Below are positions 1 through 6,000 of a stretch of 21,135 bases of DNA, one piece after another. Numbering within the stretch: the first letter of the stretch is position 1; each line of letters opens with the position of its first letter. Position numbers: made by a program. The stretch lies in the NCBI GenBank assembly GCA_031409655.1, contig JANNXQ010000137.1, forward strand, positions 1 to 21,135, written 5' to 3'. Source of the DNA: Chthoniobacteraceae bacterium (GTDB lineage: Bacteria; Verrucomicrobiota; Verrucomicrobiia; Chthoniobacterales; Chthoniobacteraceae).

Positions 1-3000
1 ATGTCGGCGAGGGAGGTAAGTTCGCCGCAGGCGCGGGCTTGCACGAGCACGTTGCCGAGCACGGTGGCTTCCACGGGGCCGGCGAGCACCGGACGCCGAC
101 AGGCATTGGCGGTGAATTGATTGAGCAGGCGATTGCGCGAGCCGCCACCGACGATGTTCACGGCACCGATAAAGCTGCCGGTCATCTCTTTCAGCCAGTT
201 TAGGACGTTGCCATATTTAATCGCGAGACTCTCCAAGGTGCAGCGGACGAATTCGCCTTCCGTATTCGGCACCGGCTGACCGGTCTCGCGGCAGAATTGG
301 GCGATGGCGGCGGGCATGTCCGGCGGGCTGAGAAAGAGCGCGTCGTCGGGATCGACGAGCGAACGGAACGCCGGCGCAACCGCGGCAGCGGCCACGAGCG
401 CCGCGTAGTCATTCGTGCTCCCTTTCTTTTCAAAAGAGCGTCGGCAACCCTGCACGAGCCAAAGGCCCATGATGTTTTTCAGCAGGCGATAGGTGCCGTC
501 CACGCCGCCTTCGTTAGTCAGATTCAATTCAAAGGCGCGGTCCGAAAGGTCGGGCTCGTGCAGTTCGACGCCGAGCAGGGACCACGTGCCGGAGCTGATG
601 TAGGCGAGTCGTCCGCGACCTTCCTCCGCCGCGCCAGGCACACCGGCGACGGCCGAGCCGGTGTCGTGAGTCGCGGGCGCGATCACTTCCACAGCGGCAG
701 GCAGGCCAGTGCGTTCGCGCACCTCAGGCAGCAAGCGCCCAAGCCGCGTGCCGGGCGGTACCACCTCCGGAAGCATCGCCGTGGGCAGTCCGAGCTTTTG
801 CAGCAGTTCCACGGACCATGTCTTCTTCGTCGGATGGAAAAACTGCGTTGTCGTAGCGTTTGTGAACTCCCCCACACGCGCTCCGCACATTTTGAAGTGC
901 AGATAGTCCGGGATCATCAGGAACTTATCTGCCGAGGCCAGCAGTGTCGGATCCCGCTCCTGCGTGGCGACGAGTTGGTAGAGCGTGTTGATCTCCATGA
1001 ATTGCACGCCGCTCGCCGCCCAGATCTCCTCGTGCGAGACCCGCGACTTCACCTTCTCCAGGATGCCGCGGGTGCGGGCGTCGCGGTAGTTCCACGGTTG
1101 CTCGATCAGCGCGCCCGTCTTGTCGATCAGCACGTAATCGACGCCCCACGTATCCACGCCCACCGACACGATCGCGTCGCCGAAACGCTTCGCCGCCAGC
1201 CCGAGCCCGCGCTCGATCTCGTCCCAGATGCGCGTGATGTCCCAGCGCAGGGTGTCGCCGATCGGCGTGATCCCGGTGGGGAAGCGATGGACCTCTTCGA
1301 GGCGCATCTTCGCGCCGTCCCAGAGTCCGGCCATCACGCGGCCGCTCTCGGCGCCGCAGTCCACGGCGAGGTAGCATTTGTCTTTCATGTCGTGGCGATT
1401 ATTTGGTGGAAAAAGCAGCCGTCAGCTCCGCGATCACGGCATCGGACATGGGCACGACTTCGCCGAGCGGGCGGCTATTGATCAGCGCCTCGGAGGTCGT
1501 CTCGAGTACCTCGAGTCGGTCAAAGGCATCCAGCACACTCGTGCCGCAGACGAGCACGCCGTCGTTCTCGATCAGTGCGATGGGATCGTTCGGCGACAGT
1601 CGCTCCGCGACGCTCGCGCCGTCGCCGTATTGCTCGCCGAAGGGGATGCGCGCCACGTCCTTGAGGAAGAGATAACTCTCGGGAATCGTGCGGCTGTCGA
1701 GCGCCGTGCCGGTGACGCTGAAGGCCGTGGAGTTCACCGGCAGCGCATTGACGATCGCGCGGAATTGCGGGTGCCGCCGGTAAATCGCCGCGTGCAGCCG
1801 CGTTGCCCGACTCGGCGAGCGTCCTGCCTCCGCCGAGCCATCGCGCACCAGCACCATGTCCGCGATGCCGACGGACCCACGATCCGCGCGCGCCGGGGTG
1901 ATGAGCATCGAGCCATCCGCAAGCCGCGCCGAGAAACTGCCTTCCGTGCTGATCAACAGCCGCTGCCGATAGCCGCGCTGGAGAAAGTCCGCGAGCTGCC
2001 GGCGCAGATCCTTTTCCTCTTCGCTCGCCGCATCCGGCGTGAAGTGCGGCAGCGCCACGCTGCTCCGTTGCGCCACCTGCGCCTCACTCAGATACCGCAC
2101 TTCGCCGAGATGACTCCCCTTGATGATCGTCTTGGCCGTGAACTCAAACGTCTCAAACCGCTCGAAGGCTCGTTGCAGATTTTCGCCCGCGCAGACGACG
2201 CCATGATTTTCCAGCACCACGCAGTCAAAGCCTTCGGCAAAAGTGCGCGCGATGTTCTCCCCCAGCGCCGCACTCCCCGGCAACGCATAGGGCGCGAAAC
2301 CCGCCGCCCCACACACGTGCCGCGCCTGCGGAAAGAGCCGCGTGTCCGGCACGCGCCGACACACACTGAAGGCCACCAGCGCCACCGCATGCGCATGCAC
2401 GATCCCGCCCAAATCCGGTCGCCGCGCATAGATCGCCTGGTGAAATGGCAACTCGCTGGAAGGCGGATGCAATCCCTCGCGCCGCCCATCTGCCCGCACA
2501 CAGACGATGTCCTCACGCCGCAGCGTCCCTTTATCCACCCGCGCCGGCGTGATCCAGATGTCGCCATTCGGCTCGCGGATGGAAAGATTGCCGCCCGATG
2601 TGGTCGTCATCCGGTAGCGATAAATGCGCTCCATGGTGCGCATGATTTCATCGCGGGGATGGAGGAGGGTGCGACAGCTTGTGGGATTCTGGTTCATACG
2701 TGGCTCATGGCCGGAGACTGCCCGTAACTCAGGAGCGCTGCAAGACGCTCCGGGGGCCTTCCAGACCCTCCGGCTTATGACACGGGCGGGGCGGAAAAAG
2801 CATTTGACGCCCCCGGCGTGGGCTCCTACTTTCCGCCCACTTTCATCAAGAGTGACCGAGGGTTCTGGCCCGTAGAAGTCACGGCAACCGCCTGATGAAA
2901 GGATGAAGGCGGAAGGATGAAGGATGAAGAAGATGGGCGCACGAGGCGCTCTTCACTTCATCGTTCCGCCTTCATCCTTTTTCCTTTCGCCGGGGTCCAG

Positions 3001-6000
3001 GTGCCAAATCCAGCCCGAGGCGCGCAAGCGTCGAGGGGAAGATGAATGCAGGCAAGTTCCGCGCGGCTCGCAACCCCGGCACCGTCTTTGCACTCATTGG
3101 AAATATGATCCTTGGTGGGAGTGCAAAACCTATGGACAAACCGTCGCCCTATTTCTCGAATCTGAAGTGCCGCGAGTGCGGACGCCTTTACCCCAAACAG
3201 GCCATCCATGTCTGCGACTACGACTTTGGCCCGCTGGAGGCGGCCTATGACTATGAGGCCATCCGTGCGGTAATGACGCGGGCGGCGATCGAATCGCGGC
3301 CGCAGTCGATGTGGCGCTATCGCGAGCTGCTGCCGATCGATGGCGAACCGACGGTGGGTACGCAGGTTGGCTTCACGCCGCTGGTGAAAGCGGATCGGCT
3401 GGCGAAAGTGCTGGGCATCCGCGAGCTGTATATCAAGAACGACACCGTCAACTACCCGACGCTGAGCTTTAAGGATCGCGTGGTTTCGGTGGCGCTGAGC
3501 CGGGCGCGCGAGCTGGGCTTTTCGGTGGTGGCGTGTGCCTCGACGGGCAATCTGGCTAACTCCGTGGCGGCGAATGCGGCGAGCGTGGGGCTGAAGAGCT
3601 ACGTGCTCATCCCGGCGGATCTGGAGCAGGGGAAGGTGCTGGGGTCGCTGGTCTACGGGACGAATGTCATCGCCATCCACGGCGCCTACGATCAGGTGAA
3701 CCGGTTGTGTTCGGAGATCGCTGGGAAGTACGGCTGGGGTTTTGTGAATGTGAATTTGCGCCCTTATTACGCAGAGGGCTCGAAGACGATGGGCTTTGAG
3801 ATCGCGGAGCAACTCGGCTGGCGGCTGCCGCGGCATACGGTGATCCCGATGGCGTCGGGTTCGCTGCTCACGAAAATTCACAAGTCTTACAAGGAGTTCA
3901 TCCACCTCGGGTTGGTGGAGAAAAGCGCCTTCAGTGTGCATGGGTCGCAGGCGACGGGCTGTTCGCCGATTTCCGAAGCGCGGAAAAAGGGCACGGACAT
4001 CGTGAAGCCCGTGCCGAAGCCGAACACGATCGCCAAGTCCCTCGCCATCGGGACGCCCGCGGATGGTTACTACGCGATTCACTCGATGAAGGAGACCGGC
4101 GGCACGGCGGAAGACGCGACGGACGAAGAGATCGTCGAAGGTATCAAGCTGCTCGCGGAGCACGAGGGCATCTTCGCCGAAACCGCCGGCGGCGTGACTG
4201 TCGCCTGTGCGAGGAAGCTCATCGCGAACGGCTCCATCCCGCGCGGCGACAGTGCCGTGCTCTGCATTACCGGCCATGGGCTGAAGACGCAGGAGGCGAT
4301 CGTCGGGAAGTGCGGCGAGCCGCGGACCATCGCGCCAAGCTTGCGGGAATTTGAAGAGCAGATCTACAACGTGGACACCGCCGCCGCCACCTGAACCTCT
4401 GCGTGAATGGTGATCGGTGATTGGTGGATCGACTTCCGCCTGCCGTCCGCGCGACCATCCACGAGTTACCGATCACCGATCACCATTCACATCCGATCCC
4501 CAATGCCCTCCGTCCTCATCCCCACACCCCTCCGCAAGCTCACCAACGAACTGGAAACCGTCAGCGCCGCCGGCGCGAATATCGGCGAACTGCTCGATAA
4601 TCTCGACGCGGCTTTTCCCGGCCTCAAAGACCGCATCTGCGACGAAGCCGGCAATGTCCGCCGCTTCGTGAATATCTTCGTCAACGGGGAGGATATTCGC
4701 TTTCTCGAAGAGAAGGCCACGCCAGTGAAGGACGCGGACGAGATCAGCATCGTGCCAGCGATTGCCGGCGGCTAGAGGCCGGCGGAACGCAATTCTCCTA
4801 TGGAAGAAAAACAACGCCTCTGGCTCATGTTTCCCGCGCGGCTGATCACGCAGCCCGTGGTCTGGGAACTCGCGCAAAAATTCAAGGTCGTGACCAACGT
4901 GCGGCAAGCCAGCGTGACCGATGAGATCGGCATCGTCTCGCTTTCGCTGGGCGGCGAACGTGACGAAATTAAAAGGGCGATCAAGTGGCTCGAAGAGACC
5001 GGGGTCAAGGTGGAGCCAGTGGAGATCAATACGATCGAAGGCTGACGGGCCCCCGGGAGCGCCACCATCCCGTGCGGTAGTCTGTGGTCTGCGCGCAGCG
5101 CGCCCAACGAGGGAATGGCGCTGCGCGCGTTTGTTCGGACGGCCGCACGGGACGGCGGCGCTCCCGGGGATTAAAACTCCACCGGCGGCGGTGGGTCGAT
5201 TTTGATGGTTGTATCGACGGTCTGCACGGTGCCGGCTTGTTCGAGCGGTCGCACGGGTTCCGCGCGGCGCACCTCGATTTCCTTTTCCACCTCCGGCGTC
5301 TCGACGGGTGCCGGGATTTCCTTCGCGCTTTGCACGGGTGCCATCTGGCCGTTGAGCTGTTTCATGGCGATCAAGTTACTGATCGCCTGGCTGGAGTTGT
5401 AAGGATCTTCGCCAAGCACCGTGGGCGCGTTCAGCACGATGGGCGTATGGGCCGCCACGTTGACGGCGAGAGACGCCCGCGGCCATTCGGCACTCGGGAT
5501 GACTTTGACAAAGCTCTGAGGCGCGAACGTCCCGCTGTGATATTCGCAACCCCGCTTCGGCGCCTGTTCCTCGGTGCAGATCTCGAAGTAAGTGGTGCGG
5601 CGCTGGATGGTCTCTCCGGTCTCGCCGTTTTGGGCGGTCTCGACGCACTTGTCCGTCGCAAGCATGCCAGAGGCCGAGCAGATCTCGCATTTGAGCAGGC
5701 CCTTTGGTTCGGGGATTTCCTGCGCCTTGTAGTTGGCGAAGGTCGCCTTCATGACGTTCACCCAAATGGGGAGGGCGATGTCCTTGCTGAAGGCACCACG
5801 GTAGATGGGATGGGGCTTGTCAAAACCGGCCCACACGCCGCAGGTCACGGCACTCGAGTAACCGACGAACCAAGTGTCGGTGAAATTGTAAGCGGTGCCC
5901 GTCTTGCCTCCGAGTGGGAAGCGCTTCAGGCCGAGTTCCGTGAAAGTGGTATCGGCGGTGCCGCGCTCGAGCACATCGGCGAGGCAGCTATGCACTTCGT

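Follow-up and report, generated by a model that had tools for sequence, protein, structure and literature searches.

Organization of the locus

The window (the whole stretch of 21,135 nt that was analysed) comes from a Chthoniobacteraceae genome (G000; 94.9% complete, 5.26% contaminated, 306 contigs) and carries, all on the + strand, a SAM-I riboswitch followed by genes for a threonine synthase (thrC) paralogue, a small sulfur carrier and a stand-alone NIL-domain protein, an operon order claimed by the initial annotation and borne out by coordinates and family matches. As the genome is incomplete and fragmented, absences reported for it mean only 'not found'.

The SAM-I (S-box) aptamer (RF00162; 2840..3048) was aligned by cmscan over the full model (1-108) at 60.6 bits (gathering threshold 44.4), and its P3 loop is interrupted by a 98-nt insert (2896..2993) that, from the cmscan alignment, folding and blastn, is a long hairpin belonging to a dispersed family of heptamer palindromic repeats, with 97 blastn pieces across the genome. 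With 150 of 445 candidates scored, no second RF00162 match was found in the genome, and a gap of 83 nt separates the riboswitch from the paralogue, in line with the claim that the only SAM-I riboswitch lies directly before this gene. No intrinsic terminator was found on the + strand of the leader; competing pairings in the expression platform (3049..3131) adjoin the start codon and relatives fold alike, indicating that this is probably a translational switch. In both computed leader states, base pairing covers the purine-rich stretch ahead of the start codon, so that shut-off at high SAM is taken over from the riboswitch family rather than derived from these folds.

The first gene (3132..4394) encodes a 420-residue PLP enzyme (PLP Lys114) that matches PALP and passes the TIGR00260 thrC cut-off, its best solved relatives being threonine synthases. 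Two further thrC genes were found in the genome, so that the paralogue is indeed a third copy; it is 37-39% identical to the nearer ThrC, falls in a clade apart from both ThrC copies and differs from ThrC in its active-site motif NVNLRPYYAEGSKT. The motif is common to the paralogue and an enzyme from Nonomuraea gerenzanensis (54% identity; grouped with SH-aLRT 97 in a quick tree), and it is via this enzyme, itself uncharacterised, rather than the Streptomyces albulus MetM sequence, that the MetM assignment was compared.

The second gene (4503..4775) encodes a 90-residue MetO-type carrier of the ThiS/SAMP1 family (ThiS/MoaD fold) with the C-terminus AIAGG-stop; its best solved relative is Mycobacterium tuberculosis CysO (E 1.5e-18) and it is 49% identical to the Nonomuraea carrier, which ends AVAGG-stop. 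The third (4800..5045) encodes an 81-residue NIL protein. What had been claimed for relative loci was recovered in an independent set: the carrier adjoined the paralogue in 29 of 29 loci, every one ending AGG-stop, NIL was present in 27 of 29, and the riboswitch lay upstream in 20 of 20. An E1-rhodanese of MoeZ type (396 aa; NF005902, 516 bits, below the cut-off of 647) is encoded elsewhere in the genome.

The initial annotation had also stressed the lack of a Mec/JAB hydrolase. This absence stands, as the single Prok-JAB match in the genome is RadC (under the cut-off) and a six-frame search with a profile from six operon JABs gave no match for a Mec-type JAB; moreover, none of five single-contig genomes carrying the paralogue had a JAB over the cut-off. 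Prok-JAB matches over the cut-off occurred in 15 of 81 family genomes, the RadC of the present genome being the only Prok-JAB match that was classified. The novelty of the absence fared less well: the GapMind 2026 supplement gives the role of Mec as maturing a terminus of MetO, and because the present carrier already ends in GG, the lack of Mec is largely expected. Given its listed role in carrier maturation, we treated Mec as accessory to, and not defining for, a MetM/MetO system.

Homocysteine routes in the family

As claimed, the genome revealed no acyltransferase and no Cys/Met PLP enzyme: HTS/MetA, MetX and a true Cys_Met_Meta_PP protein were not found in it (best match for the last, E 6e-6, under the cut-off). 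The DUF39 (L-ASST) route was rejected, as HcyBio (PF01837) was found neither here nor in any of the 81 family genomes. ThrB is present, and of the methionine synthases claimed earlier MetH was found, while the MetE-like enzyme rests on two weak frames. With no other known homocysteine route in the genome, yet with threonine (two thrC genes) and cysteine (CysK, plus a CysE-like gene under the cut-off) covered, the gene content supports assigning homocysteine synthesis to the paralogue.

The exclusion pattern between the paralogue and the Cys/Met enzyme, described earlier on fewer genomes, holds on the 81. The Cys_Met_Meta_PP Pfam model passes in 44 genomes, of which 22 with a partial best match (35 bits or less) were dropped and 22 counted (E < 1e-15); against these 22, the paralogue is present in 66, including 52 of the 59 genomes lacking a true Cys/Met enzyme. 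The complete classical route is missing in 63 of the 66; 14 also have the Cys/Met enzyme and three a full MetA+MetY route; both complete routes coexist in 3 of 81 genomes. The riboswitch tracks the paralogue as well, being present in 65 of 81 genomes, always 64-249 nt upstream of the paralogue (65/65), and in 0 of 15 genomes without it. The exclusion between the paralogue and the classical enzymes draws on about two lineages. In the eight genomes from genera g9 and g18, MetX and Cys/Met enzymes are present and the paralogue, NIL and SAM-I are missing; two genomes (G030, 95% complete; G070, 93%) are without either route. All four elements (enzyme, carrier, NIL and SAM-I) occur at the Chthoniobacter flavus locus (L116). 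A family-wide lack of MetA or other acyltransferases, as initially proposed, was not upheld, since MetX-like genes occur in nine and MetA in three of the 81 genomes (acyltransferases in 12).

From genes, folds and co-occurrence, we thus propose, with a probability of roughly 0.85, that this is a MetM/MetO homocysteine synthase operon. The route claimed earlier, from O-phosphohomoserine and a thiocarboxylated carrier to homocysteine, is well supported by gene context, phyletic exclusion and the clade of the enzyme.

The NIL protein

PF09383 is the only domain found in the NIL protein, which has no ferredoxin part and no Cys. Its predicted model (pLDDT 93.6) has MetN C2 domains as best structural matches (TM-score 0.74-0.84 by query length against Escherichia coli MetN chains), and its Asn33 (at least 90% conserved) and Ala37 align to MetN Asn295 and Ala299; both an ACT-like fold and an equivalent of Asn295, mutation of which abolishes methionine binding by MetN, are therefore present as judged from model and alignment. 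The C-terminal tail is strongly conserved and extra relative to MetN C2.

The paralogue is present in 64 of 65 NIL-carrying family genomes, and both are missing in 14 of the 81. Among 80 NIL-anchored loci, 23 have no nearby carrier, with 0 Rfam matches in 16 scanned. We rejected the notion that NIL occurs irrespective of the paralogue, because their genome-wide co-occurrence persists even when the two are unlinked. In other phyla, NIL is fused behind the carrier GG in 104 of 120 longer homologues among the matches listed; a JAB gene lies in the operon of six of six such fusions, and fusion operons also hold a separate cysteine-synthase-like gene beside the MetM-type enzyme. NIL was not found in the Nonomuraea locus or in two 0.9-Mb genomes (G194 and G170) that keep MetM/MetO and are also missing the riboswitch. 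G194 additionally keeps MoeZ, and MetH, MetE, CysK and CysE were not found in it, leaving any homocysteine there without a known fate as neither methionine synthase was found, a point against the MetM/MetO reading.

That these two reduced genomes keep MetM/MetO without NIL and riboswitch suggests, at about even odds, a regulatory role for NIL. Within the MetM/MetO explanation, the leading reading of NIL, with about an even chance, is a stand-alone methionine sensor dampening the homocysteine route, rather than a catalytic part. It is rather unlikely that NIL instead replaces Mec by helping to load sulfur or to release the product. Its tight co-inheritance with the paralogue, its fusion to the carrier in those homologues and its conserved tail would all suit a helper, as would the need for NIL/ferredoxin in the unrelated DUF39 route (PMC5764234); however, G194 and G170 keep the enzyme/carrier pair with neither NIL nor JAB, fusion operons possess NIL and JAB together, and the protein lacks a ferredoxin part or Cys.

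Taking NIL as a sensor further, we tentatively offer a broader scheme that, as a whole, is more doubtful than the sensor role itself. NIL would be an undescribed third component of the system, a free-standing methionine-sensing regulatory subunit; elsewhere, a carrier-GG-NIL polyprotein would be cut by the operon JAB like a ubiquitin fusion precursor, the Chthoniobacteraceae form being pre-cut and needing no JAB; and endosymbiont-sized relatives, having shed the riboswitch, NIL and any recognisable methionine synthase, might make homocysteine constitutively for the host to finish.

Alternative enzyme functions and relation to known systems

Three other functions for the enzyme are all improbable. 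The least improbable, at well below one in ten, is that free sulfide is the sulfur source for homocysteine, carrier and NIL having accessory roles: sodium sulfide was used to mimic MetM activity (PMC12172450), and no JAB was found to release a carrier-bound product, but none of the loci examined lacks a GG-ended carrier beside the enzyme, and this holds also for the 0.9-Mb genomes, which keep MoeZ as well. Marginally less probable is a further threonine synthase/deaminase under SAM control whose neighbouring carrier serves another purpose. Such an enzyme would match the TIGR00260 score and the solved relatives, and a Microcystis homologue (51.6% identical to MetM) acts in vitro both as a threonine synthase and as a deaminase, the authors of that work doubting full MetM function in vivo (PMC12172450). 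Nevertheless, it leaves unexplained a SAM-I-controlled third copy, differing from the two other thrC genes at active-site motifs, with an invariant carrier (29/29) in genomes without another homocysteine route. Cysteine synthesis from O-phosphoserine, as by M. tuberculosis CysM/CysO, is the least probable of all: the carrier's likeness to CysO and the pair's presence in G194, where CysK, CysE and methionine synthase were not found, would fit it, but the enzyme is threonine-synthase-like and not CysM-like, the present genome has CysK and the CysE-like gene, fusion operons hold their own cysteine-synthase-like gene, and Mec, which the CysM/CysO route requires, was not found in this genome.

For the MetM/MetO operon, we envisage that ThrB would supply O-phosphohomoserine and the unlinked MoeZ would convert the carrier's C-terminal Gly to a thiocarboxylate; the PLP enzyme would then eliminate phosphate and add the carrier sulfur at the gamma carbon. 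The release of homocysteine would need no JAB protease and would most likely proceed through thioester hydrolysis while the amine is held on PLP; MetH would then methylate it. At high SAM, the riboswitch would most likely shut the operon at translation, while NIL, with a chance of about one half, might damp the route on sensing methionine.

With the chemistry published and already in GapMind 2026, the gain lies in range and regulation. In the literature available for searching, we found no report of MetM in Verrucomicrobiota or of a NIL partner, nor do passages of PMC1779556 and PMC12452182 mention it; the claims that lineage and NIL partner are new thus stand, and a NIL gene travelling with a homocysteine operon seems undescribed. 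Riboswitch control, by contrast, is not new, as a SAM riboswitch precedes S. albulus metM (PMC12172450) and the Nonomuraea locus. The operon would close the gap in homocysteine synthesis for an abundant family of soil bacteria, among them the cultured Chthoniobacter flavus, and cautions against calling these genomes methionine auxotrophs. Xiphinematobacter genomes have been reported without methionine steps (PMC4607532, PMC7857533); should G194 and G170 belong to Xiphinematobacter, part of that gap might be a misannotated thrC. NIL is also an inexpensive case in which to ask whether a small, separate subunit exerts feedback control.

Among known systems, M. tuberculosis CysM/CysO/Mec likewise has a CysO-like carrier feeding thiocarboxylate to a PLP enzyme, whereas here the enzyme is of the threonine synthase branch, under SAM control, and no JAB was found. 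The L-aspartate semialdehyde sulfurtransferase of methanogens and Desulfovibrio (DUF39 plus NIL/ferredoxin) also places NIL, there proposed to mediate methionine feedback (PMC12068725), beside a homocysteine synthase, but the present operon has no ferredoxin part, no HcyBio and other chemistry. E. coli MetN C2 shares the NIL fold and the Asn295/Ala299 equivalents, whereas the protein here is free-standing, with its extra tail, and is associated with a synthase operon instead of a transporter. Closest is the S. albulus MetM/MetO/MoeZ/Mec route (Hasebe et al. 2024, via PMC13759103 and PMC12172450): the present predicted operon differs in its verrucomicrobial lineage, its third gene and the lack of a detectable Mec-type JAB, but shares the thrC homologue, the adjacent carrier, the upstream SAM riboswitch, an E1-rhodanese encoded elsewhere and a missing classical route, and the same layout of SAM-I, enzyme and GG-ended carrier recurs in Nonomuraea gerenzanensis.

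Operon architecture and gene content

The operon opens with a full-length SAM-I riboswitch aptamer (2840-3048, plus strand; 60.6 bits in Rfam against a gathering score of 44.4), which is the single match found across the genome (94.9% complete, 306 contigs). Next on this strand come a 420-residue PLP enzyme belonging to the threonine synthase family (3132-4394), a 90-aa ThiS/SAMP-family carrier with the C-terminus AIAGG (4503-4775) and an 81-aa protein with one NIL domain only (4800-5045), confirming the order described in the initial annotation. The divergent gene at 1399-2697 (minus), which encodes two class II aldolase domains and adjoins a sugar-kinase-like frame, shows no apparent link with the operon.

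We searched the leader for an intrinsic terminator and found none. In folds of the leader, the 5' and 3' strands of P1 can each pair with downstream segments, competing with a hairpin at 3087-3127 whose end lies 4 nt upstream of the start codon, and relatives display similar competing pairings. The leader is likely a translational switch; a purine-rich segment is paired in both alternatives, and repression by SAM is therefore assumed from the riboswitch family. The P3 loop holds a dispersed heptamer palindromic repeat (2896-2993; 97 blastn pieces in the genome), and P3-loop insertions may recur in relatives, since the aptamers of 20 of them range between 117 and 200 nt. Other dispersed palindromic elements lie in the enzyme/carrier gap (4403-4490; 17 blastn pieces) and 3' of the NIL gene (5046-5170; 192 pieces), and queG (about 13106-14224, minus) contains an in-frame 117-nt palindromic heptamer repeat (13862-13978; 444 pieces over 58 contigs) amounting to ~39 extra residues.

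As initially proposed, searches of the genome for MetA, MetX and a true Cys/Met PLP enzyme found none, nor was HcyBio found, while MetH and two further thrC genes are indeed present, together with CysK, ThrB, a MoeZ-type E1-rhodanese and a CysE-like gene under cut-off. The claimed absence of a Mec/JAB protease also stood, as the one JAB-like match is RadC and a profile from six operon JABs gave no match.

Distribution in the family and phylum

Named relatives place the genome in the Chthoniobacteraceae (Verrucomicrobiota). We surveyed 81 family genomes (80 drawn plus the present one), counting the paralogue at 70% identity or more, and found it in 66, two of which hold fragments at contig edges. 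SAM-I occurs in 65, always 64-249 nt upstream of the paralogue, and in 0 of the 15 genomes without it (40 candidates scored per genome). MetX-like genes (9/81, none of which reaches the curated cut-off) and MetA (3/81) do occur, so that the reported lack of acyltransferases holds for this genome and not family-wide. A true Cys/Met enzyme (E below 1e-15, a cut chosen in this analysis) is encoded in 22 genomes, and 11 combine it with an acyltransferase. Eight of these 11, from the genera g9 (7/7) and g18, are without the paralogue; only three carry both routes, hence a full classical route is missing from 63 of the 66 genomes with the paralogue. This exclusion is suggestive rather than statistical because about two lineages carry it. 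Neither route was found in seven genomes, five of them below 90% complete (G030 and G070 are not). One genome, G010, has a MetX-like gene (locus L045, G010:C11:14573-15631) beside the paralogue and no Cys/Met enzyme; this gene may be a serine acetyltransferase.

Across the phylum, a close orthologue (66-81%) was detected in only 9 of 250 genomes, all from the same order and class, with the carrier adjacent in 9/9, NIL in 7/9 and SAM-I in 6/9. Within the same order, G194 (locus L226:5182-6748) and G170 (locus L163), both 0.9-Mb genomes on a single contig, keep the enzyme (71-72%), the carrier and MoeZ; NIL, JAB and Cys/Met enzymes are absent from both, as is SAM-I from the locus. As the pair is kept there without NIL, NIL is dispensable for its function in these genomes, which favours a regulatory role. 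Reading G194 whole (917,278 nt) revealed no MetH, MetE or CysK, and this gap is unexplained by a MetM-type route unless a host takes homocysteine or a divergent synthase was missed. By their size and order, the two genomes may belong to the nematode symbiont genus Xiphinematobacter, for which the available portions of PMC4607532 and PMC7857533 report missing methionine steps.

The NIL protein and carrier-NIL fusions

The NIL protein is present in 65 of the 81 family genomes, 64 of which also have the paralogue, and both are missing in 14; the three discordant genomes are all fragmentary. The gene is kept even when unlinked, for example at 575 kb from the paralogue in the single-contig genome G020. 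Its predicted model (pLDDT 93.6) best matches the MetN C2 domain. Asn33, which at least 90% of 64 sequences retain, aligns with MetN Asn295, whose mutation removes methionine binding (PMC6233128, in excerpt). The C-terminal tail VEPVEINTIEG (4990-5045), conserved beyond the Pfam domain and modelled with low confidence, is possibly a docking peptide.

Of 172 longer homologues, 120 were listed, and 104 of these are carrier-NIL fusions, 103 with GG at the junction; source names among the matches listed include Poribacteria, Planctomycetota, Armatimonadota and Deltaproteobacteria. At all six long metagenome loci examined the enzyme (59-63% identical) precedes the fusion, with E1 and JAB genes downstream, and SAM-I was found at 0 of 10 loci. 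These operons (L258-L262, L265) combine a PAPS reductase-like gene, the MetM-like enzyme, the carrier-GG-NIL fusion, E1, JAB and a cysteine-synthase-like gene, several with sulfite reductase-TusA and some with an Rrf2 gene upstream. The layout fits a cleavable polyprotein, and JAB could instead be needed by the cysteine-synthase-like gene that accompanies it.

Proposed route and comparison with MetM/MetO

Directly observed are the parts of the route and their co-occurrence. In the proposed sequence, MoeZ would load sulfur onto the terminal Gly of the carrier, and the enzyme would eliminate phosphate from O-phosphohomoserine and attach the thiocarboxylate to the gamma carbon; homocysteine would then be freed, conceivably by thioester hydrolysis on the enzyme, and methylated by MetH. 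According to a 2024 abstract, MetM and the thiocarboxylate of MetO reportedly carry out the conversion directly. No JAB over cut-off was found in five single-contig genomes with the paralogue, so release would also have to be JAB-free. GapMind assigns Mec to maturation of a MetO terminus (PMC13759103), which is needless here because the window carrier already ends in GG; the lack of Mec, though real, is thus largely to be expected.

A Nonomuraea gerenzanensis plasmid-collection record encodes an enzyme 54% identical to the window enzyme, in the order SAM-I (68.7 bits), enzyme and 91-aa carrier with the C-terminus AVAGG; NIL is missing from this locus. In a quick tree the two enzymes form one clade (SH-aLRT 97) apart from both housekeeping ThrC types, and both contain the motif NVNLRPYYAEGSKT. 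In ThrC another motif stands in its place and includes an Arg, which by alignment is Arg160 of Thermus threonine synthase, a phosphate-holding residue. The Nonomuraea layout matches that of the Streptomyces albulus pair as given in excerpts of secondary sources: GapMind 2026 lists MetM, MetO, MoeZ and Mec, with the remark that annotations often wrongly label MetM a threonine synthase (PMC13759103), and metM has a SAM riboswitch upstream and homologues in cyanobacteria (PMC12172450). One such homologue, from Microcystis, speaks against a MetM assignment: in vitro it acts as a threonine synthase and as a deaminase, and the authors who studied it are doubtful that it fully serves as MetM in vivo (PMC12172450, in part). 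We consider that the window route very probably works like, and belongs to, MetM/MetO.

Neither a verrucomicrobial lineage nor a NIL partner was found in the literature searched, leaving both as apparently new, although the lineage may be treated in the original S. albulus paper or its supplements. Riboswitch control, also put forward as new, is not: it is common to actinomycetes (Nonomuraea; S. albulus metM, PMC12172450, in part) and the window operon, as is the GG end of the carrier. The NIL domain is in turn shared with an unrelated archaeal homocysteine synthase, for which the accessible text of PMC12068725 proposes methionine feedback via this domain.
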